From assembly GCA_965215125.1 (NCBI GenBank), contig OZ244052.1, forward strand, positions 1,504,001-1,568,000: DNA of 64,000 bases. Direction: 5' to 3'. Position numbers and translations under genes: made by a program. The notes under the pieces were generated by a model. That model saw only the letters and a program-made list of their open reading frames with translations. It did not search any database and was not told where the DNA came from. This DNA is from an uncultured candidatus Porisulfidus sp. (GTDB taxonomy: Bacteria > Pseudomonadota > Gammaproteobacteria > Poriferisulfidales > Oxydemutatoraceae). Every line of letters starts with the position of its first letter. Within the stretch, counting starts at the first letter, position 1. Below, in pieces: positions 1,012 through 54,540 of this stretch.

Positions 1012-2001
1012 ATGCAAAGATTAAAATTAATTCGTTCGTTGTGCTTGCTATCGGCTTTGATGGTGGGAGTGGTTCCGAGTATTGCAACTGCGCAAGAGTC
1101 ACCTATGCAGGAAAGAATAAATGAAGTTCTACCTACTCAGGATCCTTATTGCACTGCTGATGGAGATGGTCAATATCCGAACTTGCCCTCTACAGGTGCC
1201 ATAAATACGGATGCGTTTGCCGATGATTCAGCGTTATGTAGTGCTGTCACAATATCGGGAACTTCAGTCCCTGCAGGAGTCGTTGACTGGGTATTGGTTG
1301 AATTGAGGGTGGCAGTGCGCTCGGGAGGTACTCCTAATTCGGACGACGCGAATATTTTTACAGAGATTGGAAGCACTGGCGTGACAAGATCTACAGTCAT
1401 AGCTCGAAAACCGGCCTTCTTATTAAATAATGGTAGAATTGTAGATGCAGTAGCATATGCGGACCTAGGTAGTCATACCTCAGACACTCCGGATTCCTGT
1501 AATTTAAGTGAAGATGTGGTTGCTAACTTAGAGGAGAGTAACAACTGTCCTGATCTCATATTTGATGCAGACAATATAGCCGATCGTCTTGACACCAATT
1601 CAGATGGTACCGATGACGATTTATATTTGGTGATCCGCCATAGAAACCATATAGATATTATGTCTAGTACCCCACTAACCGAAAGCTCAGGGGTATACAC
1701 TTATGATTTTATTAGCAACGTAGCTAATGCTAAAGATAATGAAGGGGCAGCTGGAATAAAGGCTAATGCTGGGCCAGGAAATAATAGAGTGGCAATGTTT
1801 TCTGGTGATTCTGATTATAACAATGATATTGATATAGGTGATTATAATAATGCCATAGCGTTGCCGAATGTAGACCGAGGTGATGCAGCTAACCTAGTCT
1901 ATAGGCGTGCAGACAACGACTATAATGGTCAAGTTGATATAAGTGATTACAATGAGTCTATAAGAATCAATCGTGCCCTTTCAGCCGTACTACCAAGATA
2001 A
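1012..2001 (+). CDS. Secreted 'adaptor' protein 1: DWVLVELR/RHRNH beta-domain plus C-terminal dockerin-like double Ca-binding loop
   Basis: Signal peptide (..SIATA|Q). Motifs LPTQDPY, VVDWVLVELR, ARKPAFLL, LYLVIRHRNH, YTYDF. Ends GDSDYNNDIDIGD...ADNDYNGQVDISD. AGGAG RBS upstream. Paralog of 40854-41684. Confidence 0.8.
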   Translation: MQRLKLIRSLCLLSALMVGVVPSIATAQESPMQERINEVLPTQDPYCTADGDGQYPNLPSTGAINTDAFADDSALCSAVTISGTSVPAGVVDWVLVELRVAVRSGGTPNSDDANIFTEIGSTGVTRSTVIARKPAFLLNNGRIVDAVAYADLGSHTSDTPDSCNLSEDVVANLEESNNCPDLIFDADNIADRLDTNSDGTDDDLYLVIRHRNHIDIMSSTPLTESSGVYTYDFISNVANAKDNEGAAGIKANAGPGNNRVAMFSGDSDYNNDIDIGDYNNAIALPNVDRGDAANLVYRRADNDYNGQVDISDYNESIRINRALSAVLPR

Positions 2002-2012
2002 GGAAGAGAGAA

Positions 2013-5000
2013 ATGAATAAAATTTTATTTGTAATAAGCTTACTATTGTTTGCAATTACTAACATCAGTGCTCAAACATTAACCTTACCACAAAGTAGGT
2101 TCACATCGTCCCTTGCGAACAATAATAGAACTTTCCCATCTGATGATGGATTTCTTCATTTTCGGTTTGAACCCGGTGAAACTGAAATCGTGACGCAAGA
2201 TATTGGTGGAGTTGCCACAAAACGTCTCAAATTCACTGTTCAGGCAAGAGTACTTTCAACTACAGATATTCCGATGAGTTATGTAGTAGGATTTTTGAGA
2301 ATTGATTATAGTACTGATGCGTTTGGTGATTTACTTGATCCACCGTTGACTAGAGCGGGGCGAGTAAATCCTGCCGGAAAATGTTCTGTTGGACGTTCAG
2401 CTATATTTGAAACTGAAGGTACAGCAAGCTATACTCTAGGCATTCAGGCAACTGATAATAATACTATGCTTGTTGAAGAGACTAGTACTGCCTTCTCTAA
2501 TCCGTCCGCTGAGGCTGAGGCCTTTGGGTTTTTAACAAACCAGTTTAAGCCATATATAACATTGACATGTACAATCGTTAATGACACAATGGACGCAAAC
2601 ATTTCAATCAATGGTTCAAATGCCTCAGGCAACTCTATTCGCAGAGATTATCCTGACCCTCAGGACTTTTCCGCTCCTGCTGCTAATCAACGTTCCATCC
2701 TTCCAATAGCAGACAATGATATCCGCGGCTTTCGTTTAGATGGCAAGACTTGGGTTGAGGATTATGTGCGATATGAAAATGGACGTGGCGTTCGGCTTAA
2801 GTTTTCCAAAGGGATTAGAACGGAGTTAACTAAAGATCACTTTAGCATTGAATCAGTGTCACTTGATGATAGTGCGATAAGTACAGTGACCCATGTGGTA
2901 GGCACCCCTTATGTTGAAATTGATTTTAATCAAGTGGTGGGTACAAATTTCGATGTGAACAACATAGCAACTGACATATTAAGAATTAGTACCGACACCA
3001 TTGTAGATATGGATGGCAATAATTTGGCTGATGGTAATTTTGCGGCAGCACTATATTATGATGCAGCGGCACCTAAGGTCACCGAAATTATCCCTAATGA
3101 AGATGGCGATGAATTTACACTGACTTTCAGTAGTGCAATTGCTCCTAACACCGTTACTAAAGAGAGTTTATGTGTAACTGAGCCAAACGGAATATGTGTA
3201 GCAGAAGAAACGACCCCAACGGTACCCATTCTTAGTGTAACAACGCATGGTGATATGCCGACCACACTCACAGTGGTTGTTGCTCAGCCCGAACGTGCTA
3301 AAGTAGGCGGCACACGGTCTATAGAATTTAGGCGCAATGCTGTTCTTGGTGATTTTAGCATTACTGGGCCTCTGAGAACAGTAGAAGATTACCAAACCGT
3401 ATTAAGAGACGCACTGATGTTGCAAGACACGATTGGTCCGGAGATTACAGTGGCTAGAGTGACTGCAGGGGGCAACTTGGCATCGGGCAATCTCACCCCG
3501 TCGAGCGGAGATTATACTATGTACTTTAGGGTAACTGCCGATGAAGATGTACCAGAATTAAGTACCACGGCTGCTTATCAGTTGGAAGATAGTAATGGCG
3601 ACTTAGTTAATGCCACCGCAGCAATACAGACTGTTGTAACACAAAACAGAGATGTGATACTTCAGTACACCGTTGAGGTTGGCAATACTCCAGCTAATGC
3701 AACATACTTCACATTGGCTCGTAGTAGTACTAATCCGGCAGATCTGCAAGATGCATCAGGTAATGATCCGATTATACCTGGCAGTATAGATGACGATAAC
3801 CCAACTGGGATAGAGATAGCTGCCGGCGCAGAAATAACAGCTGACGCGTCTGCTCGAGCACCAAGAGATACAACTGCACCGTCAATCACTGTGGACATGG
3901 CAACCGTTGTGCCAAGCAATAATGGTTTAACATATAATGTAACATTTGAGCTCTCTTCAAACGAAGCTATTCCAAATATCGGGAATGAGAGTTCTTATAC
4001 GGTGACAAGAGACGGTGGTTCTGCTCCGTCAGGTTCTGCTAGGATAGTAAGCGTAAATGCTAATGCTGCTACGACTGGTGCAACAGTAATTTATACTGCT
4101 CAATTCGGAAATAACCAATACAATGCTGTGCGACCCGTAAGAGGCTGGAGACTAGACTTCGTATCGGGAGAATTATTGGATCAAGACGGTAATCAAGCTA
4201 GATTCCCGGACGCGGCAGCAAGAACGGCAGAAAGAGACGACGATAGTCCTATAATCACGATAGAAGGTAATCCGACGCTGACTGTAGTTCCCGGCATTGG
4301 CGGCAACTCTACCGTAACTGTGAGTTTTGTGGTGGCTTCCGATGAAGATGTACCAACTTTGGATGAGGCGGCATCGTATAGTTTAAGAAGATATTCAGAC
4401 AGAGCTGGAAATAATGCCTTATCTTTTTCAGGAGAAACTATAACAGTTATGGGCAACGATAGACAAGCAATGTTCACTGCTGTGATACCACTTAGTCAAA
4501 GCCAGTTGAGAGAAACAGCGGCATTCGGCTTGAACCGTGCTCTTGGCGACACCAGGTTGTTGGATACTTCCGGCAATCCACCAAATATATCTCCCGGTTT
4601 TGGGATAGATGACAACAAGTTTGCCCTCAGGGAGACTGATGGTGCAGTGGTTACAGTAGTAAGAGTAGATAATGTCCCTACAGATAATGATGTTGAGGCA
4701 AGGCCGGATGATAACAATGGGAACCGGTACGCCATAGGCTTCACAATCACGAACACCGAGCACGACACTAAGCCTATTAGCGATCTTGCTGATCCAAATT
4801 CTTATATGATATTGCGCAGAAGTGGAACTTCCAACACGACTGATGTGACAGTGATGAGTTCTGGCGTTACTGATGGAGTGAACAGTGTGGTACTGAATTT
4901 TAATGTGACAATAAATAATCAAGATGATACCGAGATGACAAACGGCTTCGTGCTGGCGCGTGCTAATGATCCCAACGCATTACTGGATAGTAATGGCAAC

Positions 5001-8000
5001 GCGCTTAGATTTGGTTCTGTCACCCCTGTCACCATTGGTGTAGGGGAGGCAATCAGCAGTGCAGGTACAGCAGTAGCACGCCGAGATACAACTAAACCAA
5101 ATCTAACGGTATCACCGGGCGAAGCTGAAACATCAGATGGTAATATCTACACTGTTAGATTCACGGTAACACCCAGCGAAGAAAATGTTCGTGGTATTAG
5201 TACTACTACTTCGTATTCTCTATTAGTTGCAGAAGAGGAAAATCAGGTAATGACAGGATTCCGAACGGCAACTAGTATTAGCCCGATGAGTATAACAGAG
5301 AATAGTGGTTCTCAAGTAGTCACTTATACAGTAAACATAGCCACCCTCCAAGCTGGTCGTCCAGTTACTTTCCCCTATGGACTTATGCTAGGTCGTGCGA
5401 ACGACGGCTTGCGAGACTTGTCAAATAATGATCCGATTCAGACTGCTACAAACGGAAGTAGAACGAATACCGAAGTAGCTAACGGACAACCATTGCAATC
5501 AGGTCAGGTAGTATTATTAGATAGAGTGTCGCCAAGTATTACGGTGACAGCAAACAGCATTGCGCCGGTGCCCGCTAACCCTGGCCGATACACGATGTCA
5601 TTTACAACAACAGCAACCGAAGACGTAAGGAATATAGGGAATGCAAGTTCATACCGGCTGATGCGTGTAGAAACCGATGACACTTGGGGGGCAGCATCAT
5701 TAACTGCTTCGCAAGATTCAGTGACCGTTAATGATAATGAAGTTGGTGGATTAGGGACTTCGGCGACATTCACCTATACCATTACTTTCACCGGTAACGT
5801 TGCAACTAGGCTTGCAAACATAAGAGGGACACGAGGGTTCACGCTGGCACTGGTTAGCGGACCAAATCAAATAAATTTACAGGATGTTGCAACTAACCTG
5901 CCGGTAAAAAGCAATGGTGACAATATATATGATACTGATGGGACGACCTTGCTGAATGACGGAATAATAGCACCGATATCAGGTGGTGTGATTGCCTCAA
6001 GTGCGGTAGCAGCGAGAGACACGACAGGCCCTGCTTTAACGGTGACTAGTGGCAATGCTACTCCGGCCACACCTACGACATATACAGGAAGTTTCAACAT
6101 TGCTGCAACGGAAAATATACGAGGTATAAATGATGAGGCTTTATATAGCTTGCTTCGTATACCGCTAGTCAGTGGAACTACTAATCCGGATAATGCAAAT
6201 GCAGTGGTAGAGACTGATGCGACTATCACTGTGACAAGCGGAACGAATTTAAGTCAGAGTGCGACAATTAACTTTACTGCTACCCTTGACAATGTGGCAC
6301 AAGCTCGAGGCACCTATGGGTTCACATTAGCGAGAGCGAGCGATGGATTACGAGATATATGGGACAATGCGGTCACTGTAGTCTCGGGTCAACAAAACAG
6401 GCTGACAGCTGGCAATGGAGCAGTTGCTAATAGAGACATAGCTAGTCCTCGAATCACAATAACAGCAACTACTAGTGCCACTGCGGTTTCGCTTGATATA
6501 TATGAGATGGATTTCACAATAAGCAGTAACGAAGATGTTGCAAGTATAGGTGATTCAGCTTCATATCAAGTAGTGCGTGTGCTCAATGATAATACTACGA
6601 CTACGGCAATCAATTCCTCAATGGAACCGATACAAATAAATACTGCAAACCGAAATGTAACAATTCCTGTTCGGATTGATTTATCAGAAGTGTCAAGAGC
6701 GCAAATAATGCAGACCAGAGGATTTACACTACTTCGTGCTAATAATAGTTTAATAGACAGCTCCGGCAATCTTCCGGTTAAGCGTGATGGTTCTACCGAC
6801 ATAGCTAACAATGGCATTATAGGTCCTATAACCGCAGGGAGAATTGACGACTTAGCGTTAGCATTGAGAGAACAAGCTCCACCAGTAATTACGGTTACGC
6901 CAGAACCAGGAGGAGCCGTTGTAACTTCAGGTCAAATAAGAAGATATACGGGAGCTTTTCTAGTAACGAGTAGTGAACCAACTCGGGGTATAAATATGGA
7001 TGATTCATATCAGCTAATGCGTGTGCTAAGAAATAATAACAGAGAGATATTCACCGGGGAGAGTGTTGATCTATCTGTTCAAAATGATGTCCGCAATGTT
7101 GCTAGCGAGAGTCAAGTAATTACCTTTGTAGCCATTTTCTCTGATACTACCAATGTTCGAACCGTTATAAGGGATACACTCGGTTTCACATTGGCGCGTA
7201 GCAACGACCCGAATGACTTAATAGATAATGCCGGCAATGCGGCAGCAAGTCCAAATGCACCATTAGATACAGACTCAACAGCAGTGGCAATGATAAACAA
7301 GGATCAACCGAGGTTTACGGTGACGGCAAATACAGGGGCTAATCCTGATCCTGTCAATGGTAATCAATATACAGCAGGCTTCACCGTGGCTGCCGATCAA
7401 AACATAGTCGGCATAGGCAGTGAGAGTTCGTATGTCGTATTGCGTTCGAGCACACCCACCAGTTTGGGATTAGTGCCTATTGATAGTAGTCTCTATAACA
7501 TAAGGCGAACGAGCGTCGGTTCCGTAGACGGGACGACAGCAACCTTTGAAATTACTGTTACTTATACCGGTATAGCCGATACACAGGGGACTGCCGGATT
7601 TACCTTAGGGCTTGCCGGTGATGGGGATGAATGTAATCTGTGCGACAACCGAAGCAACCTACCGGCGAGAAGCGATGGAACCACTATAAACGAGGATATG
7701 AGCATAGATGATCGCCCGGCAGCTGTTGCAGAAAGAGATACGGTTCCGCCGTTTATAAACGTAATCAGTGGTATTACTGAAGGGGGTGCAGATGTCGCTG
7801 GTGGGGGATGGCGGTTATCATTTAAGATGGACGGTTTTTCTAGCGATGATATCCAAGGATTAGATAACCCGGCTTCCTATAGGATATTGGGTAAAAACTT
7901 TGACGGTAGTTATACTATTTTGCCTTCGGCAAGTAATCCGTATACATTTCCGTCAGTTACCGGGAGAGTGCCATGCAGTGATACAGAAGTTGCTGCTATA

Positions 8001-11000
8001 CAACAATTTCTTGAGACAGGATTGTCTAATTGTCGGGTAATAACTACACGGGATACAACAAGACTCGATATACCCGCAAGTCAGGCGAGGAACATAGAAA
8101 GCTTTGTGCTAGGTCGTGCGCCCGGTGCGCTTCGCGATCGGTCAAACAATGACCCGGTCGTTGCCAACGACAGTCAAACTTCCCCTCGAATAGTAGGGAC
8201 AGGACCTGACGGAGATGGGCGGACTGTTTTGCCACTAGACCTGATCGGTTATGAGTTTACGCTGGACAGAAATAGCCCGTCAATCACGGTGAGACCCGAG
8301 GATTTAAGCCGACGTGGCAACAGCATATCGGGAGCTTTTGCCGTAAGTAGTAGTGATATAATCGACGAAATAAGAAATCCAAGTTCTTATGTGTTGTTGC
8401 GTGTAGCAACAGGTGGCAGCACAACGACGGTAATAAACAACGCAATAACCGGATCTGGATCAGGTGATGCCCGATCGGCAACGATTAGATTTAGTATTAC
8501 CGACAATACCCCCAATCTAGCAGTGAACTTTCAATACACGCTGGGTCGTCTCGCCAACTTATCCGACAAAGCAGGCAATCCGCTTGTCTATGCCGGCACC
8601 ACCGACATGGTATCAACAAACACTCGCATAGACAGAAGTACAACTGCGCTTGCAGACATACCGGCCGAGGACACCATGAACCCGATCGTCACCCTAGAAG
8701 CGACGACACCCCAAGCCAACCCCGATGAAAATAATGAGTTAAGATTTACCGGGGCCTTCGTGGTGAATTCCGATGAAGAAATTCCCGCCATAGGACAGTC
8801 AGGATCCTATCAGTTGCTTCGTGTCCTCAGTGGCAATGCTACTACTACTACCGGTATTGCCAATGTCAGCTTCACTTTTAGCAATGGCACAACAAGTTCG
8901 GTAACAATCAATTTTGCCGTAACCCTTGCCGGTATAACTCAAGTGCAAGCTACAACCGGTTTCACATTAGAGCCTACTGCCAACTTTGTAGATGGCGGAG
9001 GCAACGGGCCACTAAACAATGAATTTATTGCTAACGCCGATGATGACCCCACAGTCGCAATGCGAGAAGACGATTCTCCGAGACTATCGGCATTGGCGCA
9101 AACCGGTCAACAACCGACTTTTGCTAGCGGCCCGCGTGTCATGACCCCGGCATTTAGAGTTAATGTAGAGAGTCCAGTCGAAACTATTAGAGGGATAAAT
9201 CAACCGAATTCATATCAAATATTGCGCCTTGTAGGCACTGCAGACAGTCAGACAGTGGAACCGTTCAACGGTACCGAAGTCGTCAGCATAGGTAGTAGCA
9301 ATGCAGATGGACAGCTAGTTTCTGTTACAGTGACATTTGATAACATACAAGATGCGAGAAACACTTATGGCTTCGCATTAGCTCGCAGAGGCAATCTGCG
9401 CGACTTATCCGGCAACGATCCCTTAAGTACCGCTGCAGATGGAACGACCGGGACAGCAGTGGAACTGAGTTCTCGTATAGATTTAAGAGACAGTGCCGTA
9501 TGGGTCAGAACGGATAGAACACAACCGAATATCACGGTGGTTGCACAAGGCCCCGAAGGTCAAGAAGCACAACCTGTTTCATCCAATCCGGTCGTTTATA
9601 CGGGAAGTTTTCGTATAAGTTCCGGCGATGTTATCAGAAACATCAACTCCCCAAGTGCATATCAGTTGCTGCGTCAAACAATGGGCGGTTCCTTAAGCAA
9701 TATTGACGCAACAATAAGCGTTAGTAATTTGGCCGGAACTCCCTCAGCTGGTTTCACTGCAGCAACCGTCGCATTTAGAACAACCCTAACTGCACCAATA
9801 CTAAGAGCTACCGGGAGCTCTGCGACAGCAGGATTCATCTTAGCGAATGCTTCAACAGATATCAGCGGGCTACACGATATTGCAGGTAATTTACCGGTGA
9901 CAGATAATGCCGATTCCTTGTCAAATACAGAAGCCTCTATCGCCGCAAGAGACACAACTCCGCCGACGATTACGGTGGTTGCATTAGGTCAGGGGGCTAT
10001 GCCTGCACGGAACAACCCGCTCGTTTATACGGGAAGTTTCCGTGTAAGTTCTACGCCTACCGAAGCTATCAGAAACCTAAACCGACCGGCATCCTATAAT
10101 TTATTACTTATAACTAACGCAGGTGCAATACGCCCGTTTAGCGCAAGTAGCACAACGATAACAGTTGGTGCAACAACATTCGCTCCTATAGGAATCCCAA
10201 CGGCAGCGACGGTTAATTTCGAGGCAAGTCTAAGCGAGTCTATCGTAACGGCTACAGGCAACGATGCAATAATGGGCTTTACTCTGGCCAGTGCTACATC
10301 AACGGGCCTTGACGGATTGCGAGATATTGCATCTAATGAACCAGTACTATTTAGTGAGAGACGTTTAAGCAATCAATCCGAGGCGATAGCGGAAATAGAA
10401 ATGGATGCACCGGTAATAACGGTGATTGCGGAAGGCGAGGAAGCTCAACCCGATCCGGATAATCCGCTGGTTTACAGAGGAACTTTCGTAGTAACCGCGC
10501 CTGTCGATGATCCGGTCAGAAACTTAAACGATCCGGCAGTGTATAGGTTATTGCGTCTAACTACTGCAGGCGTTATAAATGGAATTGCTTCAACGTTGAC
10601 CATCAGCAGTTTCGTAGAAAGTGCCACTCCAGCCTATTACACTTCGGCAACAGTCATGTTTGAAACGGTTTTAGCCAATACAGACCAGTTAGAAAACACA
10701 GCAGGCTTCACATTGGGTGAGAATCGAGTAAGCGGCTTAGGTGGTCTGCAAGATAATGCCGGTAACCGACCGCGTAATACGCCGCCACTGAGACGCTTAG
10801 ATTCTGCCGACACTGCGATAGCAAGGATTCAAGTAACACGCATAGAATGTGCAGCATTCTATCGCGACATAGGTCAAAACGAGCTGTTCTTCAGAGTACA
10901 AAGTGAAGATGCGCTTAATCTGGCAGGATTGCAATTAACCCAGTCAGGTTCCAGTTTGGCTATTGACGGTCCGGTTGAGCAAATAGGAACAACACCGTCA

Positions 11001-22276: not shown

Positions 22277-22378
22277 CTCGCCTACTAGCGGCGACGGCAG
22301 TCGTGTTGTTTATCGAAAGATATACGACAAGACAGTCTAGCCGATTAACATTCTACAAAACTTAAAAGGGGATAGACA

Positions 22379-22768: not shown

Positions 22769-22780
22769 TATCTCTTTTGT

Positions 22781-22811
22781 AATAAGCCCTGATGTCAAGT
22801 CAGGGCTTGTT
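22781..22811 (+). terminator. Hairpin, likely terminator
   Basis: aataagccctga-tgtcaag-tcagggcttgtt. Confidence 0.55.
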
Positions 22812-22833
22812 GCATATATAACCACTGATTGCT

Positions 22834-40725: not shown

Positions 40726-40754
40726 TTGACTAAATATGAATAATCATATATTAT
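40726..40754 (+). promoter_or_regulatory. Predicted sigma70 promoter for adaptor/giant operon 2
   Basis: TTGACT, 17-bp spacer, TATTAT. The direct repeat gactaaatat occurs at about 40690 and 40728. Confidence 0.5.
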
Positions 40755-44600: not shown

Positions 44601-47600
44601 TGCTGACGCCTTGCTGGATCGTAGCGGCAATCCTCCCAGACTGGGTACTACCCCCATTGGTGTAGGTGCGGTAATAGACGCTTCAGTCATCGCACGCCGA
44701 GATACGACAGCACCCAATCTGACGGTATCACCGAGCACGGCTGAAACAGACGATGGTAAGGTCTATACTTTTTCATTTGAAGTGACGAGAGAAGAAGCCG
44801 TTCGTGGTTTTAGTATTACGAGTTCATATTCCTTATTAGTCGCAGAAAAGGAAGAGAATGTAATGTCCGGGTTCCAAGTGGTAAGTGGCACTAATCCTAG
44901 TGTGGAGTTTTCCGAAGATAGACCTACGACTGCGGTAGTTAAATACAGCGTAGATGTAGATGACCTGCAAAGTAATCTTAGTATTGCTTCTACTTATGGG
45001 TTCATGCTCGGTCGTGCCGGCGGTGGTTTGCGAGACTTGGCGAACAATGACCCGGTGCAGAGCGATGCAGCCGGAGACAGGACGGCTACCGAAGTCGCCG
45101 ACGGACAACCACTGCAATTAGGTCAGGTAGTAGTATTAGATAGAGTGTCGCCAAGCATTACGGTATCGGCAGACAGCATTGCACCGGTGCCTGCTACCGT
45201 TGGTCGATACACGATGTCATTTACAACAACAGCGACCGAAGCCGTAAGGAATATAGCGCAAGCAGGTTCATACCGGTTAATGCGTGTCAGAACCGATAAT
45301 ACTTGGGAGGCAGCATCAGAAACTGCTATGCAAGAACAAGTATCCGTTGGTATGAATAATGAAGTCGACGGATTAGGGACTTCGGCGACATTCACCTATA
45401 CCATCACTTTCACCGGTGAAGCTCCAACTAGGCTTGCAAACATAAGAGGGACACGAGGGTTCACGCTGGCACTGGTTAGCGGGGAAAATCAAGTAAACTT
45501 ACGGGACATTGCAACTAACCTACCGGTGAAAAGCAATGGCGATGCGATATACGATACTGACGGGACGACCTTGCTGAATGACGGGATAATAGCACCGATA
45601 TCAGGTGGTGTGATTGTCGCAAGTGCGGTCGCAGCGAGAGACACGACAGGTCCTGATTTAACGGTAGCATCTATCGGCAATGCTGTCCCGGGTGCGACCG
45701 CTGTGGCATTGAGCGGGCGTTTCACGGTAGGTTCTACGGAAGCGATACGAGATATAAATAGTACGGCTTCATATAGCTTGCTTCGTATCCCGCTAAATAG
45801 TGATGGCAGTCCTAATGATGGGGGTGCGGTGTTAGAGAGCAGTGCGACTTTCACTGTGTCAAGCGGAAGCAATTTAAGTCAATCTGTGACAATTGACTTT
45901 ACTGCCGTGCTTGATGATGTTGTCCAAGTGCGAGGCACTTATGGTTTCACATTGGCGAGTGCGATTGTTGCGGGCGGTGGATTGCGAGACATATGGGGCA
46001 ATGCGGTGGTTGCGATTTCAGCCGAGCAGAACAGGCTGACAGCCGGCAATAATGCAGTGGTGGCAATAGAGAAAGTTCCCCCACAAATCACGATAGCAGG
46101 TTCTCCGACACTGACTTTAGATGCCGACACCGCTACTGCGACCTTTGTGGTGTTGGCAAGTGAGGATGTAGAGACCTTGGATGAAGGGGATTCATATCAG
46201 CTATACCGATTTGAAGGCGGCACCGGTTCTCCGGTAAGCGGTGCCACGGCGACGATTGATCCCCGTAGTGATAACCGCAGAACGACTCTGACTTATGTTG
46301 TGACATTGACTGCTCAAGAGGTGATGGACACGGAGAGCTTTGGTTTATACCGAGCTGAAGATAATACGAAATTGTTGGATAATTCAGGCAATTTACCTGT
46401 GCAAGGTGATGGTTCGACATTAATAGCTACAGGCACGGAGATAGACTCGACCCGGCGTGCCGTCAAGGAGACCGAGGGTGCGATGATTACGGTGGCTATC
46501 GTTGATCAAGTTGATGCAGATAATGATGTTGAGGCAGACCCGAATCCTAACGACGGAAACCAATATACCATAGGTTTCACGGTCACGAATACAGACCACG
46601 GCACTCAATCTATTAGCGATCTTGCTACTACAGCTTCTTATACGATACTGCGCAGAGTTGGGAATAGTAACTTGAATACCACTATCACGGTGGTTAGTGG
46701 GACCGGTAGCGATAATGGTGCAGGTGTGGCGACACTGGAGTTTGTGGTGAGCATAGCCGATCAAGCGACTACCGAGATGACGGACGGTTTTGTGCTGGCG
46801 CGTGCTAACAATGCTGACGCCTTGCTGGATAGTAGCGGCAATCCTCCCAGACTAGGTACTACCCCCATTGGTGTAGGTGCGGTAATAGACGCTTCAGTCA
46901 TCGCACGCCGAGATACGACAGCACCCAATCTGACGGTATCACCGAGCACCGCTGAAACAGACGATGGTAAGGTCTATACTTTTTCATTTGAAGTGACGAG
47001 AGAAGAAGCCGTTCGTGGTTTTAGTATTACGAGTTCATATTCCTTATTAGTCGCAGAAAAGGAAGAGAATGTAATGTCCGGGTTCCAAGTGGTAAGTGGC
47101 ACTAATCCTAGTGTGGAGTTTTCCGAAGATAGACCTACGACTGCGGTATTTGAATACAGCGTAGATGTAGATGACCTGCAAAGTAATCTTAGTATTGCTT
47201 CTACTTATGGGTTCATGCTCGGTCGTGCCGGCGGTGGTTTGCGAGACTTGGCGAACAATGACCCGGTGCAGAGCGATGCAGCCGGAGACAGGACGGCTAC
47301 CGAAGTCGCCGACGGACAACCACTGCAATTAGGTCAGGTAGTAGTATTAGATAGAGTGTCGCCAAGCATTACGGTATCGGCAGACAGCATTGCACCGGTG
47401 CCTGCTACCGTTGGTCGATACACGATGTCATTTACAACAACAGCGACCGAAGCCGTAAGGAATATAGCGCAAGCAGGTTCATACCGGTTAATGCGTGTCA
47501 GAACCGATAATACTTGGGAGGCAGCATCATTAACTGCTTCGCAAGAACCAGTATCCGTTGGTATGAATAATGAAGTTGACGGATTAGGGACTTCGGCGAC

Positions 47601-50600
47601 ATTCACCTATACCATCACTTTCACCGGTGAAGCTCCAACTAGGCTTGCAAACATAAGAGGGACACGAGGGTTCACGCTGGCACTGGTTAGCGGGGAAAAT
47701 CAAGTAAACTTACGAGACATTGCAACTAACCTACCGGTGAAAAGCAATGGCGATGCGATATACGATACTGACGGGACGACCTTGCTGGATGACGGGATAA
47801 TAGCCCCGATATCAGGTGGTGTGATTGTCGCAAGTGCGGTCGCAGCGAGAGACACGACAGGTCCTGATTTAACGGTAGCATCTATCGGCAATGCTGTCCC
47901 GGGTGCGACCGCTGTGGCATTGAGCGGGCGTTTCACGGTAGGTTCTACGGAAGCGATACGAGATATAAATAGTACGGCTTCATATAGCTTGCTTCGTATC
48001 CCGCTAAATAGTGATGGCAGTCCTAATGATGGGGGTGCGGTGTTAGAGAGCAGTGCGACTTTCACTGTGTCAAGCGGAAGCAATTTAAGTCAATCTGTGA
48101 CAATTGACTTTACTGCCGTGCTTGATGATGTTGTCCAAGTGCGAGGCACTTATGGTTTCACATTGGCGAGTGCGATTGTTGCGGGCGGTGGATTGCGAGA
48201 CATATGGGGCAATGCGGTGGTTGCGATTTCAGCCGAGCAGAACAGGCTGACAGCCGGCAATAATGCAGTGGTGGCAATAGAGAAAGTTCCCCCACAAATC
48301 ACGATAGCAGGTTCTCCGACACTGACTTTAGATGCCGACACCGCTACTGCGACCTTTGTGGTGTTGGCAAGTGAGGATGTAGAGACCTTGGATGAAGGGG
48401 ATTCATATCAGCTATACCGATTTGAAGGCGGCACCGGTTCTCCGGTAAGCGGTGCCACGGCGACGATTGATCCCCGTAGTGATAACCGCAGAACGACTCT
48501 GACTTATGTTGTGACATTGACTGCTCAACAAGTGATAGACACGGAGAGCTTTGGTTTATACCGAGCTGAAGATAATACGAAATTGTTGGATAATTCAGGC
48601 AATTTACCTGTGCAAGGTGATGGTTCGACATTAATAGCTACAGGCACGGAGATAGACTCGACCCGGCGTGCCGTCAAGGAGACCGAGGGTGCGATGATTA
48701 CGGTGGCTATCGTTGATCAAGTTGATGCAGATAATGATGTTGAGGCAGACCCGAATCCTAACGACGGAAACCAATATACCATAGGTTTCACGGTCACGAA
48801 TACAGACCACGGCACTCAACCTATTGACGATCTTGCTACTACAGCTTCTTATACGATACTGCGCAGAGTTGGGAATAGTAACTTGAATACTACTATCACG
48901 GTGGTTAGTGGGACCGGTAGCGATAATGGTGCAGGTGTGGCGACACTGGAGTTTGTGGTGAGCATAGCCGATCAAGCGACTACCGAGATGACGGACGGTT
49001 TTGTGCTGGCGCGTGCTAACAATGCTGACGCCTTGCTGGATAGTAGCGGCAATCCCCCTAGACTGGGTACTACCCCCATTGGTGTAGGTGCGGTAATAGA
49101 CGCTTCAGTCATCGCACGCCGAGATACGACAGCACCCAATCTGACGGTATCACCGAGCACCGCTGAAACAGACGATGGTAAGGTCTATACTTTTTCATTT
49201 GAAGTGACGAGAGAAGAAGCCGTTCGTGGTTTTAGTATTACGAGTTCATATTCCTTATTAGTCGCAGAAAAGGAAGAGAATGTAATGTCCGGGTTCCAAG
49301 TGGCAGGTGGCATTAATCCTAGTGTGGAGTTTTCCGAAGATAGACCTACGACTGCGGTATTTGAATACAGCGTAGATGTAGATGACCTGCAAAGTAATCT
49401 TAGTATTGTTTCTACTTATGGGTTCATGCTTGGTCGTGCCGGCGGTGGTTTGCGAGACTTGGCGAACAATGACCCGGTGCAGAGCGATGCAGCCGGAGAC
49501 AGGACGACGACCGAAGTCGCCGACGGACAACCATTGCAATTAGGTCAGGTAGTATTATTAGATAGAGTGTCGCCAAGCATTACGGTATCGGCAGACAGCA
49601 TTGCACCGGTGCCTGCTACCGTTGGTCGATACACGATGTCATTTACAACAACAGCGACCGAAGCCGTAAGGAATATAGCGCAAGCAGGTTCATACCGGTT
49701 AATGCGTGTCAGAACCGATAATACTTGGGAGGCAGCATCATTAACTGCTTCGCAAGAACCAGTATCCGTTGGTATGAATAATGAAGTTGACGGATTAGGG
49801 ACTTCGGCGACATTCACCTATACCATCACTTTCACCGGTGAAGCTCCAACTAGGCTTGCAAACATAAGAGGGACACGAGGGTTCACGCTGGCACTGGTTA
49901 GCGGGGAAAATCAAGTAAACTTACGAGACATTGCAACTAACCTACCGGTGAAAAGCAATGGCGATGCGATATACGATACTGACGGGACGACCTTGCTGGA
50001 TGACGGGATAATAGCACCGATATCAGGTGGTGTGATTGTCGCAAGTGCGGTCGCAGCGAGAGACACGACAGGTCCTGATTTAACGGTAGCATCTATCGGC
50101 AATGCTGTCCCGGGTGCGACCGCTGTGGCATTGAGCGGGCGTTTCACGGTAGGTTCTACGGAAGCGATACGAGATATAAATAGTACGGCTTCATATAGCT
50201 TGCTTCGTATCCCGCTAAATAGTGATGGCAGTCCTAATGATGGGGGTGCGGTGTTAGAGAGCAGTGCGACTTTCACTGTGTCAAGCGGAAGCAATTTAAG
50301 TCAATCTGTGACAATTGACTTTACTGCCGTGCTTGATGATGTTGTCCAAGTGCGAGGCACTTATGGTTTCACATTGGCGAGTGCGATTGTTGCGGGCGGT
50401 GGATTGCGAGACATATGGGGCAATGCGGTGGTTGCGATTTCAGCCGAGCAGAACAGACTGACAGCCGGCAATAATGCAGTGGTGGCAATAGAGAAAGTTC
50501 CACCACAAATCACGATAGCAGGTTCTCCGACACTGACTTTAGATGCCACCACCGCTACTGCGACCTTTGTGGTGTTGGCAAGTGAGGATGTAGAGACCTT

Positions 50601-53600
50601 GGATGAAGGGGATTCATATCAGCTATACCGATTTGAAGGTGGTAGTGGTTCTCCGGTAAGCGGTGCCACGGCGACGATTGATCCCCGTAGTGATAACCGC
50701 AGAACGACTCTGACTTATGTTGTGACATTGACTGCTCAACAAGTGATAGACACGGAGAGCTTTGGTTTATACCGAGCTGAAGATAATACGAAATTGTTGG
50801 ATAATTCAGGCAATTTACCTGTGCAAGGTGATGGTTCGACATTAATAGCTACAGGCACGGAGATAGACTCGACCCGGCGTGCCGTCAAGGAGACCGAGGG
50901 TGCGATGATTACGGTGGCTATCGTTGATCAAGTTGATGCAGATAATGATGTTGAGGCAGAACCGAATCCTAACGATGGAAACCAATATACCATAGGTTTC
51001 ACGGTCACGAATACAGACCACGGCACTCAACCTATTGACGATCTTGCTACTACAGCTTCTTATACGATACTGCGCAGAGTTGGGAATAGTAACTTGAATA
51101 CTACTATCACGGTGGTTAGTGGGACCGGTAGCGAGGATAGTGCAGGTGTGGCAACACTGGAGTTTGTGGTGAGCATAGCCGATCAAGCGACTACCGAGAT
51201 GACGGACGGTTTTGTGCTGGCGCGTGCTAACAATGCTGACGCCTTGCTGGATAGTAGCGGCAATCCCCCTAGACTGGGTACTACCCCCATTGGTGTAGGC
51301 GCGGTAATAGACGCTTCAGTCATCGCACGCCGAGATACGACAGCACCCAATCTGACGGTATCACCGAGCACCGCTGAAACAGACGATGGTAAGGTCTATA
51401 CTTTTTCATTTGAAGTGACGAGAGAAGAAGCCGTTCGTGGTTTTAGTATTACGAGTTCATATTCCTTATTAGTCGCAGAAAAGGAAGAGAATGTAATGTC
51501 CGGGTTCCAAGTGGCAGGTGGCATTAATCCTAGTGTGGAGTTTTCCGAAGATAGACCTACGACTGCGGTATTTGAATACAGCGTAGATGTAGATGACCTG
51601 CAAAGTAATCTTAGTATTGTTTCTACTTATGGGTTCATGCTCGGTCGTGCCGGCGGTGGTTTGCGAGACTTGGCGAACAATGACCCGGTGCAGAGCGATG
51701 CAGCCGGAGACAGGACGACGACCGAAGTCGCCGACGGACAACCATTGCAATTAGGTCAGGTAGTATTATTAGATAGAGTGTCGCCAAGCATTACGGTATC
51801 GGCAGACAGCATTGCACCGGTGCCTGCTACCGTTGGTCGATACACGATGTCATTTACAACAACAGCGACCGAAGCCGTAAGGAATATAGCGCAAGCAGGT
51901 TCATACCGGTTGATGCGTGTAAAAACCGATAATACTTGGGAGGCAGCATCAGAAACTGCTATGCAAGAACAAGTATCCGTTGGTATGAATAATGAAGTTG
52001 ACGGATTAGGGACTTCGGCGACATTCACCTATACCATCACTTTCACCGGTGAAGCTACAACTAGGCTTGCGAACATAAGAGACACACGAGGGTTCACGCT
52101 GGCACTGGTTAGCGGAGAAAATCAAGTAAACTTACGGGACATTGCAACTAACCTGCCGGTGAAAAGCAATGGTGACAATATATACGATGCTGATGGGACG
52201 ACCTTGCTGGATGACGGGATAATAGCCCCGATATCAGGTGGTGTGATTGTCGCAAGTGCGGTCGCAGCGAGAGACACGACAGGTCCTGATTTAACGGTAG
52301 CATCTATCGGCAATGCTGTCCCGGGTGCGACCGCTGTGGCATTGAGCGGGCGTTTCACGGTAGGTTCTACGGAAGCGATACGAGATATAAATAGTACGGC
52401 TTCATATAGCTTGCTTCGTATCCCGCTAAATAGTGATGGCAGTCCTAATGATGGGGGTGCGGTGTTAGAGAGCAGTGCGACTTTCACTGTGTCAAGCGGA
52501 ACCAATTTAAGTCAATCTGTGACAATTGACTTTACTGCCGTGCTTGATGATGTTGTCCAAGTGCGAGGCACTTATGGTTTCACATTGGCGAGTGCGATTG
52601 TTGCGGGCGGTGGATTGCGAGACATATGGGGCAATGCGGTGGTTGCGATTTCAGCCGAGCAGAACAGGCTGACAGCCGGCAATAATGCAGTGGTGGCAAT
52701 AGAGAAAGTTCCACCACAAATTAATGTGGTTGCCGACGGTGTAGCAGTTCCGGTAGCTGAGACTAACGGCACGGAATATACCGTTAGGTTTAATGTTGAT
52801 GTTCAAAACGCCGAAGAAGTTAAAGGACTAGGCGATACGAGTTCTTACAATGTAATCCGTATTGGAGATTCGGGGAATACCACAGCCACTGCAGTAAGTG
52901 GCAACTCCAATGCCGATAATACAACCGCAACCTTGGTTTATGAAGTGGCAGTAGCTTCTCCGGTAGGCATAACAGGTTTCACTTTAGCGGGTGGCAGCGA
53001 CGTAGAGGCATTGAGAGACAATTCGGGCAATTTAGCTGTTCAAGGTAGCAGTACTACTACCAAAATAGCTACCGGTGTGCGCATAGATGACGATGGGACG
53101 GCATTAGCGCAAAGAGATACGATGCCCCCGGCAATTACGGTGGTAGCGGGTGCTGATGATGCCGTTCTGCAAGCACAAGCAGAAGCAGGCAATACATACC
53201 GGATGATGTTCACGGTCACGGTTGCAGATGATGATAATGTGCCGAGCCTGAACACAACATCTTCTTACCAATTAGTGCGTATATTCAAGGATGGCAGGGT
53301 TCCCGAGTTAGTTCGTGGTGCTACGGTTGAGGCAGCCGACAATGTATTCACATACACGGCAATGCTGACGACAGACATTGAGGATACGGAAGGGTTTACA
53401 CTGGCGCGTTCTAGCGACGAGACCAGCTTATTGGATGCATCGGGCAATATGCCGGTTAAGAATGATGGAACCACCATGATAGCTATCGGGGATGTGATCG
53501 CTCCGATAGACGACGACGGACAAGTTGTGCGAAGTGCAATAGCACGAACGCCACGAAGTGACGACGATACCTTGATAGGCTTGGTGTTGAGAAACTTGAT

Positions 53601-54540
53601 AGCCTCTGCATTGACAGATATAGAACTTGATCCCGACTTTACCAAAGACCAAATAACTTATACGGCAAGTGTGATATTTAGTGTAAGCAGTGTGGAAGTG
53701 ACACCAACGGCGAATAGTGCTTATGCCACTATCATGGTTAACGGCGAGGAGTTGACTGATAGTACGAGCAATGTGGTATTAAACAATCCAGCCGAAATGG
53801 TAGAAACGGAAGTCGCAGTTAAAGTGATTGCTGAAGATGACATTACATCCCAAACTTATACTATAGCGATTATGCGGGCAGCAACGGAGAGCAGCGATGC
53901 AAGACTCAGAAGCTTATCATTAGACAATATCCCGTTTACCTTTAATCCCTCAACGAATACTTATAGTATAACGGTTAATCATGGGGTGGAAAAGACAACG
54001 GTGACGGCAATGGTATTTCATCCGGGAGCAAGGGTCACAAGGCTTACCTTAGACGGCACCTCGCAAAATGATCCCGCTATTGATTTGAAAGTGGGTTCCA
54101 ATGTAATTGCGATTAGAGTTATTGCCGAAGATACTTCACCGAGCACCTATACCATAACCATCACGCGTCTGGAAAACAACGATACAGGACTCAGAAGCTT
54201 ATCATTAGACAATATCCCGTTTACCTTTAATCCCTCAACGAGGACTTATGAGATAATGGTCGGAGAGGAGATAACCGAGACGACGGTGACGGCAGTGGTA
54301 TCTTTCAATGGAGCAATGATTACAGATCTTACGGTAAACGATAATGCACAGACTTTCACTGTCGGCACGAATATAGAAGAGAGTATCGCATTAAATACGG
54401 ATAATACTGTAATAGAGATCACCGTGACCGCAGCAAATAGTACTACAGACACTTATACCCTAACTATCACGCGTGCACAACCGCCGGTTTCCGACATTCG
54501 TCTCCGTATCAAGGTATTTCTTGAAGGCCCCTTGCAATAG
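41689..54540 (+). CDS. Giant (4283 aa) secreted Ig-like repeat protein 2 with 3 cadherin-like beta-sandwich domains and C-terminal KVFLEGP peptide
   Basis: Signal peptide (SAFA|Q). Collinear with the giant 1 N-terminal half. 4 x 737-aa repeat. Three L.SL.L..F.P....Y..TV...TYTITITR modules (about 53557-54480). No TM anchor; ends IRLRIKVFLEGPLQ*. Confidence 0.9.
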   Translation: MIAKQRNPIRKIFTILLLLLVGSAFAQTSFVQSRFSGMPSDENEIAGECNDCQPSVDGVLEYRIAMEELESDRVNTTATYNVQMRIIGGNTITKGATRLAFASARLTYNTDAFGKKAKENNKCDYDVVGAFAEQGKGYSYTFNDTTDDSFTITAYTPARTTTASNLVQLSETFQDFVKISCNIENSDQDAGVAISGTDITANMIYVYSDANETNTNISARRGIFPLVHNSLRGFRLDEKTWVRDYSRYGDGRGVRLEFSKGIDTQLTEANFTLDATTATTDSVISKVNHNSGSNYAEIEFSQAIGDDILRLVSSSPTVKDADNGELADGNFVAALFYDSVAPRVTAIAQNTDFSGPANRTEWILTFSSAISPSTVNKDSLCVAEMNGICVAEGMTPTIPIIGVRTDGDSPTTLTVVVDQTAGFATGGMRSIEFRRNAIQGATNFKVVEDYQPALRDAVILQQDTTAPEITVARVRSDGTPASASDNLIPVGDNYVMYFQVTANEDVESLDDLDSYQLQDNTGTVVDDAVGSIHSGSGSNRSVILRYTILVSSATSVTYFTVVRSNVATSLQDVASNQPVDVDRNPIANGGIITNAPSARAPRDTTGPIITVGTTTIMPTSSGLKYIVTFEINANESVPTIAEVNSYTVTREGDGNEPSVTDTVDVVANDAMTAATVTYTAAFGSDQYADVRATTGWTLGFVSGALLDVDRNAPTLPDSPLASRDTTAPQITIAGSPTLTLDATTATASFVVVADKAVETLDEGDSYQLYRFEGGPGSPVSGATAAIDPRSDNRRTTLTYVVALSDQEVIDTESFGLYRAEDNTKLLDNSGNLPVQGDGSTLIATDTEIDSTRRAVKETEGAMITVAIVDQVDADNDVEAEPNPNDGSQYTIGFTITNTEHSTKPIGDLATTTSYTILRRVGSNNLNTTITVVSGAGSEDSAGVATLEFVVSIADQATTEMTDGFVLARANNADALLDRSGNPPRLGTTPIGVGAVIDASVIARRDTTAPNLTVSPSTAETDDGKVYTFSFEVTREEAVRGFSITSSYSLLVAEKEENVMSGFQVVSGTNPSVEFSEDRPTTAVVKYSVDVDDLQSNLSIASTYGFMLGRAGGGLRDLANNDPVQSDAAGDRTATEVADGQPLQLGQVVVLDRVSPSITVSADSIAPVPATVGRYTMSFTTTATEAVRNIAQAGSYRLMRVRTDNTWEAASETAMQEQVSVGMNNEVDGLGTSATFTYTITFTGEAPTRLANIRGTRGFTLALVSGENQVNLRDIATNLPVKSNGDAIYDTDGTTLLNDGIIAPISGGVIVASAVAARDTTGPDLTVASIGNAVPGATAVALSGRFTVGSTEAIRDINSTASYSLLRIPLNSDGSPNDGGAVLESSATFTVSSGSNLSQSVTIDFTAVLDDVVQVRGTYGFTLASAIVAGGGLRDIWGNAVVAISAEQNRLTAGNNAVVAIEKVPPQITIAGSPTLTLDADTATATFVVLASEDVETLDEGDSYQLYRFEGGTGSPVSGATATIDPRSDNRRTTLTYVVTLTAQEVMDTESFGLYRAEDNTKLLDNSGNLPVQGDGSTLIATGTEIDSTRRAVKETEGAMITVAIVDQVDADNDVEADPNPNDGNQYTIGFTVTNTDHGTQSISDLATTASYTILRRVGNSNLNTTITVVSGTGSDNGAGVATLEFVVSIADQATTEMTDGFVLARANNADALLDSSGNPPRLGTTPIGVGAVIDASVIARRDTTAPNLTVSPSTAETDDGKVYTFSFEVTREEAVRGFSITSSYSLLVAEKEENVMSGFQVVSGTNPSVEFSEDRPTTAVFEYSVDVDDLQSNLSIASTYGFMLGRAGGGLRDLANNDPVQSDAAGDRTATEVADGQPLQLGQVVVLDRVSPSITVSADSIAPVPATVGRYTMSFTTTATEAVRNIAQAGSYRLMRVRTDNTWEAASLTASQEPVSVGMNNEVDGLGTSATFTYTITFTGEAPTRLANIRGTRGFTLALVSGENQVNLRDIATNLPVKSNGDAIYDTDGTTLLDDGIIAPISGGVIVASAVAARDTTGPDLTVASIGNAVPGATAVALSGRFTVGSTEAIRDINSTASYSLLRIPLNSDGSPNDGGAVLESSATFTVSSGSNLSQSVTIDFTAVLDDVVQVRGTYGFTLASAIVAGGGLRDIWGNAVVAISAEQNRLTAGNNAVVAIEKVPPQITIAGSPTLTLDADTATATFVVLASEDVETLDEGDSYQLYRFEGGTGSPVSGATATIDPRSDNRRTTLTYVVTLTAQQVIDTESFGLYRAEDNTKLLDNSGNLPVQGDGSTLIATGTEIDSTRRAVKETEGAMITVAIVDQVDADNDVEADPNPNDGNQYTIGFTVTNTDHGTQPIDDLATTASYTILRRVGNSNLNTTITVVSGTGSDNGAGVATLEFVVSIADQATTEMTDGFVLARANNADALLDSSGNPPRLGTTPIGVGAVIDASVIARRDTTAPNLTVSPSTAETDDGKVYTFSFEVTREEAVRGFSITSSYSLLVAEKEENVMSGFQVAGGINPSVEFSEDRPTTAVFEYSVDVDDLQSNLSIVSTYGFMLGRAGGGLRDLANNDPVQSDAAGDRTTTEVADGQPLQLGQVVLLDRVSPSITVSADSIAPVPATVGRYTMSFTTTATEAVRNIAQAGSYRLMRVRTDNTWEAASLTASQEPVSVGMNNEVDGLGTSATFTYTITFTGEAPTRLANIRGTRGFTLALVSGENQVNLRDIATNLPVKSNGDAIYDTDGTTLLDDGIIAPISGGVIVASAVAARDTTGPDLTVASIGNAVPGATAVALSGRFTVGSTEAIRDINSTASYSLLRIPLNSDGSPNDGGAVLESSATFTVSSGSNLSQSVTIDFTAVLDDVVQVRGTYGFTLASAIVAGGGLRDIWGNAVVAISAEQNRLTAGNNAVVAIEKVPPQITIAGSPTLTLDATTATATFVVLASEDVETLDEGDSYQLYRFEGGSGSPVSGATATIDPRSDNRRTTLTYVVTLTAQQVIDTESFGLYRAEDNTKLLDNSGNLPVQGDGSTLIATGTEIDSTRRAVKETEGAMITVAIVDQVDADNDVEAEPNPNDGNQYTIGFTVTNTDHGTQPIDDLATTASYTILRRVGNSNLNTTITVVSGTGSEDSAGVATLEFVVSIADQATTEMTDGFVLARANNADALLDSSGNPPRLGTTPIGVGAVIDASVIARRDTTAPNLTVSPSTAETDDGKVYTFSFEVTREEAVRGFSITSSYSLLVAEKEENVMSGFQVAGGINPSVEFSEDRPTTAVFEYSVDVDDLQSNLSIVSTYGFMLGRAGGGLRDLANNDPVQSDAAGDRTTTEVADGQPLQLGQVVLLDRVSPSITVSADSIAPVPATVGRYTMSFTTTATEAVRNIAQAGSYRLMRVKTDNTWEAASETAMQEQVSVGMNNEVDGLGTSATFTYTITFTGEATTRLANIRDTRGFTLALVSGENQVNLRDIATNLPVKSNGDNIYDADGTTLLDDGIIAPISGGVIVASAVAARDTTGPDLTVASIGNAVPGATAVALSGRFTVGSTEAIRDINSTASYSLLRIPLNSDGSPNDGGAVLESSATFTVSSGTNLSQSVTIDFTAVLDDVVQVRGTYGFTLASAIVAGGGLRDIWGNAVVAISAEQNRLTAGNNAVVAIEKVPPQINVVADGVAVPVAETNGTEYTVRFNVDVQNAEEVKGLGDTSSYNVIRIGDSGNTTATAVSGNSNADNTTATLVYEVAVASPVGITGFTLAGGSDVEALRDNSGNLAVQGSSTTTKIATGVRIDDDGTALAQRDTMPPAITVVAGADDAVLQAQAEAGNTYRMMFTVTVADDDNVPSLNTTSSYQLVRIFKDGRVPELVRGATVEAADNVFTYTAMLTTDIEDTEGFTLARSSDETSLLDASGNMPVKNDGTTMIAIGDVIAPIDDDGQVVRSAIARTPRSDDDTLIGLVLRNLIASALTDIELDPDFTKDQITYTASVIFSVSSVEVTPTANSAYATIMVNGEELTDSTSNVVLNNPAEMVETEVAVKVIAEDDITSQTYTIAIMRAATESSDARLRSLSLDNIPFTFNPSTNTYSITVNHGVEKTTVTAMVFHPGARVTRLTLDGTSQNDPAIDLKVGSNVIAIRVIAEDTSPSTYTITITRLENNDTGLRSLSLDNIPFTFNPSTRTYEIMVGEEITETTVTAVVSFNGAMITDLTVNDNAQTFTVGTNIEESIALNTDNTVIEITVTAANSTTDTYTLTITRAQPPVSDIRLRIKVFLEGPLQ
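43873..52716 (+). repeat. Four tandem near-identical 2211-bp (737-aa) coding repeats
   Basis: caaatcacgatagcaggttctccg recurs at 43873, 46084, 48295 and 50506. Antisense ORFs repeat with the same period. Confidence 0.97.

Follow-up and report, generated by a model that had tools for sequence, protein, structure and literature searches.

A possible tag-and-catcher arrangement of strand-tailed giants, strand-deficient dockerin adaptors, and a cohesin-headed stalk in a sponge-symbiont gammaproteobacterium

Anchoring of the Clostridium thermocellum cellulosome uses SLH domains, and in its type II cohesin/X module-dockerin (XDoc) pair (CipA; Protein Data Bank [PDB] entry 2b59) a beta-sandwich is followed by a dockerin, the dyad plugging into a cohesin on a cell-anchored protein. 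In chaperone-usher pili, an incomplete immunoglobulin (Ig)-like or sandwich fold receives its missing strand from another polypeptide. Type V pili of Bacteroidia use a C-terminal strand for this, and there the groove is opened by removal of an N-terminal piece. SpyTag/SpyCatcher and split GFP are engineered systems in which a short terminal strand on a cargo is caught by the rest of the domain, the SpyTag bond being covalent. Here we compare these systems with two operons in a 64,000-nucleotide (nt) window, the whole stretch of DNA analyzed, from an uncultured candidatus Porisulfidus species (contig OZ244052.1; G000:C1:1504001-1568000 in our genome set). Each operon encodes a small protein with a dockerin-like end, which we call the adaptor, followed by a giant protein with an N-terminal head of predicted cohesin fold. 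Our main finding is that the C-terminal tail of one of these giants, which recurs on many other proteins of the same genome, appears to be the strand that the adaptors lack relative to their single-chain homologs.

The likeness to CipA lies in the order of beta-sandwich and dockerin, in a dyad that is proposed here, too, to plug into a cohesin on a cell-anchored protein, and in the heads of the giants, which superpose on type I, II, and III cohesins. The match of the adaptor profile to 2b59_B covers the dockerin part only, and the adaptor sandwich is unmatched to the X module (best Z 3.7). The present host differs in being a Gram-negative gammaproteobacterial symbiont, the cargo consists of adhesin-like giants and not of enzymes, a GlyGly-CTERM-like anchor and a rhombosortase take the place of SLH domains, and the sandwich-dockerin dyad is a separate polypeptide without its first strand, the strand being on the cargo. 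The tail shares its C-terminal position with the donated strand of type V pili, and the N terminus of the adaptor would be created by signal peptide cleavage. In contrast to donor-strand pili, there are no chaperone, usher, or pilin genes here, the acceptor carries a dockerin, and the donor is a tag on dozens to hundreds of unrelated proteins, with no pilin subunit and with complementation proposed from sequence. Unlike SpyTag/SpyCatcher, nothing here suggests a covalent link, because the first residue of the strand varies (K or R in tails; K, R, T, S, or N in unsplit modules). The unsplit C-terminal module of other bacteria is homologous to the adaptor body and dockerin (E of 1e-30 and better; hhalign probability, 100%) but is one piece at the cargo C terminus, whereas here the cargo tail and the adaptor each have a part of it.

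Table 1. Coordinates of the features discussed, numbered from the first nucleotide of the window
Feature	Position	Strand	Remarks
Promoter candidate, adaptor 1	789..817	+	Sigma-70-like; TTGACA-17-TATTAT, 11/12 matches, TG before the -10 element; consensus match only
Adaptor 1	1012..2001	+	329 amino acids (aa); signal peptide, strand-less beta-sandwich body, dockerin-like C-terminal end
Giant 1	2013..15635	+	4540 aa; proposed anchored stalk
Cohesin-fold head, giant 1	2082..2750	+	Profile match at genome 1506082-1506750, E 1.5e-67; homologous to the modeled head of giant 2
GlyGly-CTERM-like tail, giant 1	15510..15632	+	Glycine run, hydrophobic helix, RRRK; read from sequence
Rhombosortase	16016..16612	+	TIGR03902, E 1.6e-39, 135.3 bits against a cutoff of 84; also Pfam Rhomboid
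Promoter candidate, adaptor 2	40726..40754	+	Sigma-70-like; TTGACT-17-TATTAT, 10/12 matches; consensus match only
Adaptor 2	40854..41684	+	276 aa; signal peptide at about residues 1-32, strand-less body, dockerin-like end at residues 221-262
Giant 2	41689..54540	+	4283 aa; cohesin-fold head, repeats, cadherin-like domains, strand tail
Cohesin-fold head, giant 2	41767..42408	+	Residues 27-240; AlphaFold2 model and structure matches
Tandem repeats, giant 2	43870..52713	+	Four units of 2211 nt (737 aa); end coordinate extrapolated as four units
Cadherin-like domain (PF12733), giant 2	53905..54168	+	Residues 4073-4160; best of three
Strand tail, giant 2	54496..54537	+	IRLRIKVFLEGPLQ; C-terminal end; in alignment, falls on the first strand of unsplit modules

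Tail and adaptor as pieces of one module

The adaptor-giant layout occurs twice in the window, about 40 kb apart, with spacers of 11 nt (adaptor 1 to giant 1) and 4 nt (adaptor 2 to giant 2) and with ordinary housekeeping genes filling the interval. Signal peptides are present on both adaptors and both giants. The adaptors are paralogs (31% identity, E 2e-34), and the giants share 41% identity over their first 600 aa (E 2e-123). An earlier, sequence-only reading of this DNA had pointed out two paralogous operons of this kind, and the open reading frames (ORFs) are as it described them. A third adaptor-giant operon lies at genome positions 109405-119941; its adaptor 3 (119096-119941, minus strand) is flanked by giants of 3,364 and 3,196 aa, both with the same N-terminal domain. 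Given this third operon and the recurrence of the arrangement in relatives, the layout is not a product of chance. Head and tail occur together on giant 2 and on both giants of the third locus.

Giant 2 ends in a conserved, amphipathic peptide that recurs on other giants with the consensus [IL]R[IV]R.[KR]VFLEGPLQ, immediately followed by the stop codon. Searched against 1.84 billion representatives, a profile of 19 adaptors gave 7,860 protein matches at E ≤ 1e-3, of which 2,759 had E ≤ 1e-10. In long matches, the homologous region proved to be a C-terminal module that starts ..L.LKVFLEGPF.., about 50 residues before DWVLVELR. Among the matches listed (P0066 to P0178), 62 of 113 carried a KVFLEGP-like motif 30 to 75 aa before DWVLVELR in the same chain; such a motif was found in 0 of 30 short adaptor-like matches (P0033 to P0065).

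Alignment by MAFFT set the last 15 residues of giant 2 on the first strand of the unsplit module, and mature adaptor N termini began right after it. With hhalign, the tail alignment fell on unsplit columns 161-175 (probability, 82%; E 1e-5; 15 columns) and the adaptor alignment on columns 208-386 (probability, 100%; E 5.3e-45), so that tail and adaptor are consecutive, nonoverlapping pieces of the unsplit module. A hidden Markov model (HMM; 227 positions) built from the 62 motif-bearing modules gave the same picture from the adaptor side: adaptor 1 covers positions 51-224 and adaptor 2 positions 51-226 (E 1e-36), the strand at positions 8-16 being uncovered in both. In nine giants, the sole local match to this HMM (positions 3/6-16) was at the last 11 to 14 residues, with scores (-1.9 to -4.7 bits) that are insignificant alone. 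By homology, then, the adaptors are an acceptor fold without the strand that single-chain homologs have, and the tail corresponds to that first strand. The module itself, a C-terminal unit in the order strand, beta-sandwich, and dockerin, is widespread and uncatalogued, and the match of the tail to its first strand is new here. The unsplit module corresponds to no Pfam family; it is attached to GDSL lipase, CBM20/48, FG-GAP, S8 peptidase, and Fib_succ_major proteins, and its Atlas clusters are annotated "hypothetical protein," the commonest phylum in their rows being Bacteroidota. The sequence-only reading had cast the KVFLEGP tail as a donor. That role now has a concrete basis, the tail being the strand that the adaptors are without, while the binding of tail to adaptor is something we infer.

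We next considered how the tail is distributed and maintained, using 19 genomes of the family (the window's own and 18 others, five of the 19 forming the genus set) and 22 genomes from three neighboring families. In the window's own genome (2.22 Mb), 27 ORFs, amounting to 17.5% of the sequence, end in the tail or a close variant; 24 of the 27 are giants of 1,493 to 15,111 aa, nearly all with a signal peptide by eye (a crude test flagged 18 of the 24). The DNA of the 15 strict tails is different in every copy, and nine of these tails encode an identical KVFLEGPLQ-stop from nine different DNA strings. A strict DNA pattern of tail plus stop was found 15, 14, 16, 34, and 11 times in genomes G000, G001, G002, G003, and G004, respectively, 214 times in G006, and twice in G014, with the stop codon exactly two residues after the motif in all seven genomes. 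The pattern was absent from the other 34 relatives, and its reversed control gave 0 matches in every genome of this set. It was also absent from 400 other genomes sampled across the class. A relaxed pattern adds G007 with 8 tails (ending FLEGALQ) and G014 with 6. In G006, the tagged genes encode mostly proteins of 300 to 1,200 aa and stand in tandem arrays. A peptide kept while its DNA varies, the fixed position of the stop, the 214 copies in G006, and the count of 0 in 400 genomes elsewhere together point to purifying selection on the tail as a functional tag.

These observations bear on a reading in which the tails are inert remnants of a whole module that was lost by deletion, spread via recombination, while the adaptors belong to an old and separate lineage of small proteins with dockerins. 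The unsplit form does occur in a sister genome, G005, where all 25 matches to the adaptor profile lie in large ORFs (687 to 17,496 aa) and where, in seven of seven examined, the module is unsplit, starting at HMM position 4 to 6, that is, at the strand, and ending 3 to 76 aa before the stop. Moreover, the tree does not join the G005 module to the adaptors, and a simple recent fission of a G005-type module is therefore unsupported. Inert remnants would not be expected to keep their peptide across nine distinct DNA strings (15 of 15 copies distinct) or to hold a stop at a fixed distance from the motif in seven genomes, nor would they readily give 214 copies, mostly on small proteins, in one genome and none in 400 others of the class. 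We regard the remnant explanation as highly implausible.

Several variations on the tailed giants were also seen. After the signal peptide, many of them start with D.D.DGLI(E/D).C.L..LNA(I/V)RYQLDG (e.g., genome 244182-258374 and 350114-439624), an N-terminal element that is an EF-hand or dockerin-like calcium loop. The region 350114-439624 (minus strand) encodes five tandem paralogs of about 5,900 aa, all with the variant tail RVFPEGLLR or RVFPEGFLR; different classes of tail might pair with different adaptors.

Cohesin-fold heads, dockerin-like ends, and the anchor

The motif that the sequence-only reading had noticed in the N-terminal domains of the giants came back as the consensus when 13 homologous heads, drawn from five genomes, were aligned, and its comparison of these domains with cohesins was borne out by a structure model. 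The AlphaFold2 model of the giant 2 head had a mean pLDDT (predicted local distance difference test) of 79.8 and a pTM (predicted template modeling score) of 0.79, and Foldseek found 52 matches to it in the PDB at E ≤ 1e-3, nearly all of them cohesins (types I, II, and III). In a second structure search, independent of Foldseek and run over 48,161 representative chains, 19 of the 20 top rows were titled cohesin (Z 12.0 to 7.9); the remaining one was 2o4e, titled as a protein-protein interaction module of a C. perfringens GH84 protein. Superposition on 1ohz_A gave a Z of 11.1 and a root mean square deviation of 3.1 Å with 139 of 140 residues aligned. The alignments span whole cohesin chains, and unrelated Ig-like adhesin domains came next, at Z ≤ 7.7. 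The model thus supported a cohesin fold, a nine-stranded jelly-roll, as an assignment of structure and not of membership in Pfam Cohesin by sequence. Two giant ORFs in relatives (G001:C1:2346008-2351233, 3,724 aa, and G004:C2:2063077-2068311, 5,945 aa) have two cohesin-like modules about 4.6 kb apart and in this resemble a multicohesin scaffoldin.

The description of the small proteins as dockerin-ended also held. Adaptor 2 scored 23.2 bits against Pfam Dockerin_1 (PF00404; cutoff, 22.9), and PF00404 was precomputed for 14 of 28 other proteins found. In the 19-sequence adaptor alignment, G221, D222, D233, and D260 show no variation, and N224, D226, and I229 show almost none. The family has two calcium-binding loops (D.N.D...D), and its profile aligns to solved dockerins over both; the helices after the loops were of low confidence in the adaptor model. 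A search of solved sequences with the family profile returned 22 matches at E ≤ 1, mostly dockerins, the best being the type II X-dockerin of CipA (2b59_B; E 5e-4; profile positions 210-265).

The membrane anchor that the sequence-only reading had assigned to giant 1, and not to giant 2, was likewise recovered: giant 1 ends in a glycine run, a helix, and RRRK, and rhombosortase is the next gene. In the report on VesB of Vibrio cholerae (PMC6219818), the GlyGly-CTERM signal comprises a glycine-rich (Gly/Ser) motif, a hydrophobic region, and positive charges. The tail of giant 1, as read from its residues, fits this three-part description, with the rhombosortase adjacent, and the same three-part tail is found on its G006 ortholog, P0179. 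The likeness to GlyGly-CTERM/rhombosortase sorting extends to the proximity of type II secretion, in the form of a GspD secretin that scored above its cutoff 4.8 kb before the window. The substrate is different, a 4,540-aa cohesin-headed stalk and no protease. Rhombosortase was rejected as a marker of the present system, as it was found in 18 of 19 family genomes. A second protein with a GlyGly-CTERM-like end is encoded at genome 1831429-1837641 (plus strand; 2,070 aa); it has the C-terminal modules of giant 1 (about 650 aa) and no cohesin head.

Relatives and the proposed mechanism

Adaptor genes are closely tied to headed proteins in related genomes. Each of the 16 adaptors examined (15 from the genus and 1 from G006) is immediately followed by a cohesin-headed ORF, with spacers of 4 to 11 nt in six of the seven loci where the next ORF was found; in the genus, 10 of 25 heads lack an adaptor immediately before them. 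The trio of adaptor, cohesin-headed protein, and rhombosortase is syntenic in six of six genomes (the five of the genus and G006). In G006, the adaptor gene stands behind rhodanese and is followed by a cohesin-headed protein of 1,369 aa, with a tail of glycine run, helix, and basic residues, and then by rhomboid; this order matches the first locus of the window down to the same rhodanese gene in front. The linkage of adaptors to giants in relatives, on which the sequence-only reading had made its proposal depend, is therefore found in 16 of 16 cases across six genomes. One adaptor copy, at G001:C1:22948-23778, has an in-frame TGA and may be a pseudogene or reflect a sequencing error.

Such tight translational coupling, an adaptor gene that always precedes the head gene, and signal peptides on both products could also point to an adaptor that works in the periplasm, as a chaperone or an aid to export, on the head of the downstream giant during secretion and that stands outside the final surface structure, with the tails unrelated to it. 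A chaperone, however, would leave unexplained why the tail matches the very strand that the adaptor is missing. The dockerin-like double calcium loop is conserved across the adaptor family, and the head has a cohesin fold; the cohesin-dockerin pair is known for stable assembly, not for transient chaperoning. We consider a purely chaperoning role distinctly improbable.

We propose instead that the two pieces of the module, made as separate polypeptides, come together. At least 24 Sec-exported giants carrying the C-terminal strand would be the cargo. The tail of each would insert into an adaptor as its missing strand, by strand complementation in trans, and this union would equip every tagged protein with a dockerin, which in turn would bind the cohesin heads. 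Giant 1, processed by rhombosortase and probably exported via the nearby type II secretion system, would fix the assembly to the cell. Where a giant has a head as well as a tail, as giant 2 and the pair at the third locus do, it could lengthen the assembly or add branches to it. We infer all the binding steps, as well as the head-to-tail polymerization of giant 2, from the parts, and put the chances at about even that the tail completes the adaptor fold in trans, that the adaptor dockerin plugs into cohesin heads, and that giant 1 anchors the assembly. The fuller picture of a natural tag-and-catcher sorting system, in which a C-terminal strand of about 14 residues is captured by a strand-deficient adaptor that is plugged into a rhombosortase-anchored cohesin stalk, with head-to-tail chaining allowed, we hold tentatively, at somewhat less than even chances.

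If the proposal is correct, this would be a new Gram-negative route for protein sorting and display, one that relies on completing a fold and not on a sortase-type enzyme, and the tail would represent a new class of proteome-wide sorting tag, carried in each genome by secreted proteins that are otherwise unrelated and number from dozens to more than 200. A single small connector together with a single anchored stalk would then serve a large and fast-changing surface repertoire (17.5% of this genome; 214 genes in a relative), which would account for how these sponge symbionts keep their adhesin-like giants attached to the cell. The uncatalogued module, which is very widespread, would thereby gain a function, and protein engineers would have a natural, noncovalent tag/catcher pair. 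Leaving the split aside, a predicted cohesin-dockerin pair would here be joined to rhombosortase anchoring. Full-text literature searches found no paper combining "rhombosortase" and "dockerin" and no occurrence of the tail motif strings, and those on cohesin/dockerin or giant proteins in sponge symbionts turned up nothing relevant.

A number of findings weigh against complementation in trans or against individual steps of it. Pfam Cohesin (PF00963) matched none of 14 heads at E ≤ 10 and nothing genome-wide at E ≤ 1, and a search of solved sequences with the head profile found no cohesin. Adaptor 1 failed to reach Pfam Dockerin_1 and had no Pfam match at all, and the last 60 aa of giant 1 matched no NCBIfam model at E ≤ 1. 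The adaptor alone was modeled with a core pLDDT of 70 to 90 (about residues 70-200; mean, 62.7), the model had no Foldseek match at E ≤ 1e-3, and a wide structural search reached no higher than Z 3.7; because the core models alone and has no recognizable fold match, an open groove in the adaptor is unsupported. In the tree, the unsplit module of G005 groups with outside unsplit modules (91/98) and not with the family adaptors. Genome G006 has one adaptor gene against its 214 tagged proteins. Finally, the proposal offers no route across the outer membrane for proteins of up to 15,111 aa.

The co-occurrence of tails and adaptors, which the sequence-only reading had put forward as a check together with rhombosortase, came out mixed. 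The adaptor family was found in 15 of the 18 other family genomes and in 0 of 22 genomes of the three neighboring families. Strand-less adaptors are present in eight of eight tail-bearing genomes, and the small members of the family in other relatives are all strand-less. On the other side of the balance, G008, G009, G010, G012, G013, and G015 likewise encode small, strand-less members of the family, and tail hits in these genomes (0 to 2) are at control level. Because of these six genomes, the adaptor may need no donated strand, or donors may look different there. Tails with Y/F and Q/E variants were sought in G010, G013, G012, G015, and G009 and gave 0, 1, 1, 0, and 2 matches against 1 in the control, which is noise. 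A sequence MTVFL or MTAYL after the signal peptide in G010, G013, G015, and G009 was considered as a retained strand and rejected, since HMM alignment assigned it to the next element of the module (M.T.L.N); with the proteins of these four genomes strand-less as well, there is no neat two-way co-occurrence of tail and adaptor. A 650-aa protein of G012 (L008, 370-2319) seems to combine a head-like N-terminal part (CGDC motif) with an unsplit module (HMM positions 6-213) and is a possible self-linking unit in one chain.

The strand-less adaptors of the six genomes without detectable tails, the single adaptor gene of G006, and an adaptor core that models without the strand would all suit a different account, in which the tail serves another machine as a separate C-terminal signal for sorting or secretion and the adaptors bind only cohesin heads, for example as caps, as assembly factors, or as small cargo in their own right. 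Short, proteome-wide C-terminal tags are, moreover, a hallmark of sorting systems. This tail, however, has neither the hydrophobic helix nor the basic cluster of known CTERM signals, and no candidate machine was found beside the tailed genes. An independent signal would also have to be identical, by coincidence, to the consensus first strand of the module, just what the adaptors lack, and to be accompanied by strand-less adaptors in every tail-bearing genome. We judge such a separate signal unlikely and retain strand complementation by the adaptor as our working proposal.

Other features of the window

The sequence-only reading had placed a promoter before each operon. A sigma-70-like consensus site is indeed present at each (Table 1), but the number of such sites at the adaptor operons is no higher than in shuffles. 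Searches of Pfam and NCBIfam gave no match to giant 1 at E ≤ 0.1. In giant 2, the tandem units are spaced 2211 nt from start to start three times and are 94% identical over a 300-nt reference, and three stretches match PF12733 (E 7.1e-29 for the whole protein).

Two regions lie between the operons. At 22484-22760, a tandem repeat of 18/36 nt (15.4 and 5.8 copies; 98% matches for the 36-nt unit) is located inside overlapping ORFs at 22345-22840 (both strands) and encodes a Lys/Ala/Thr-rich repeat. At 31282-33707, the stretch of lowest GC content in the window (0.398), a DNA methylase (N6_N4_Mtase) adjoins an ORF for a TdeIII-type restriction endonuclease, which covers only profile positions 99-242 of 242 and is probably truncated.

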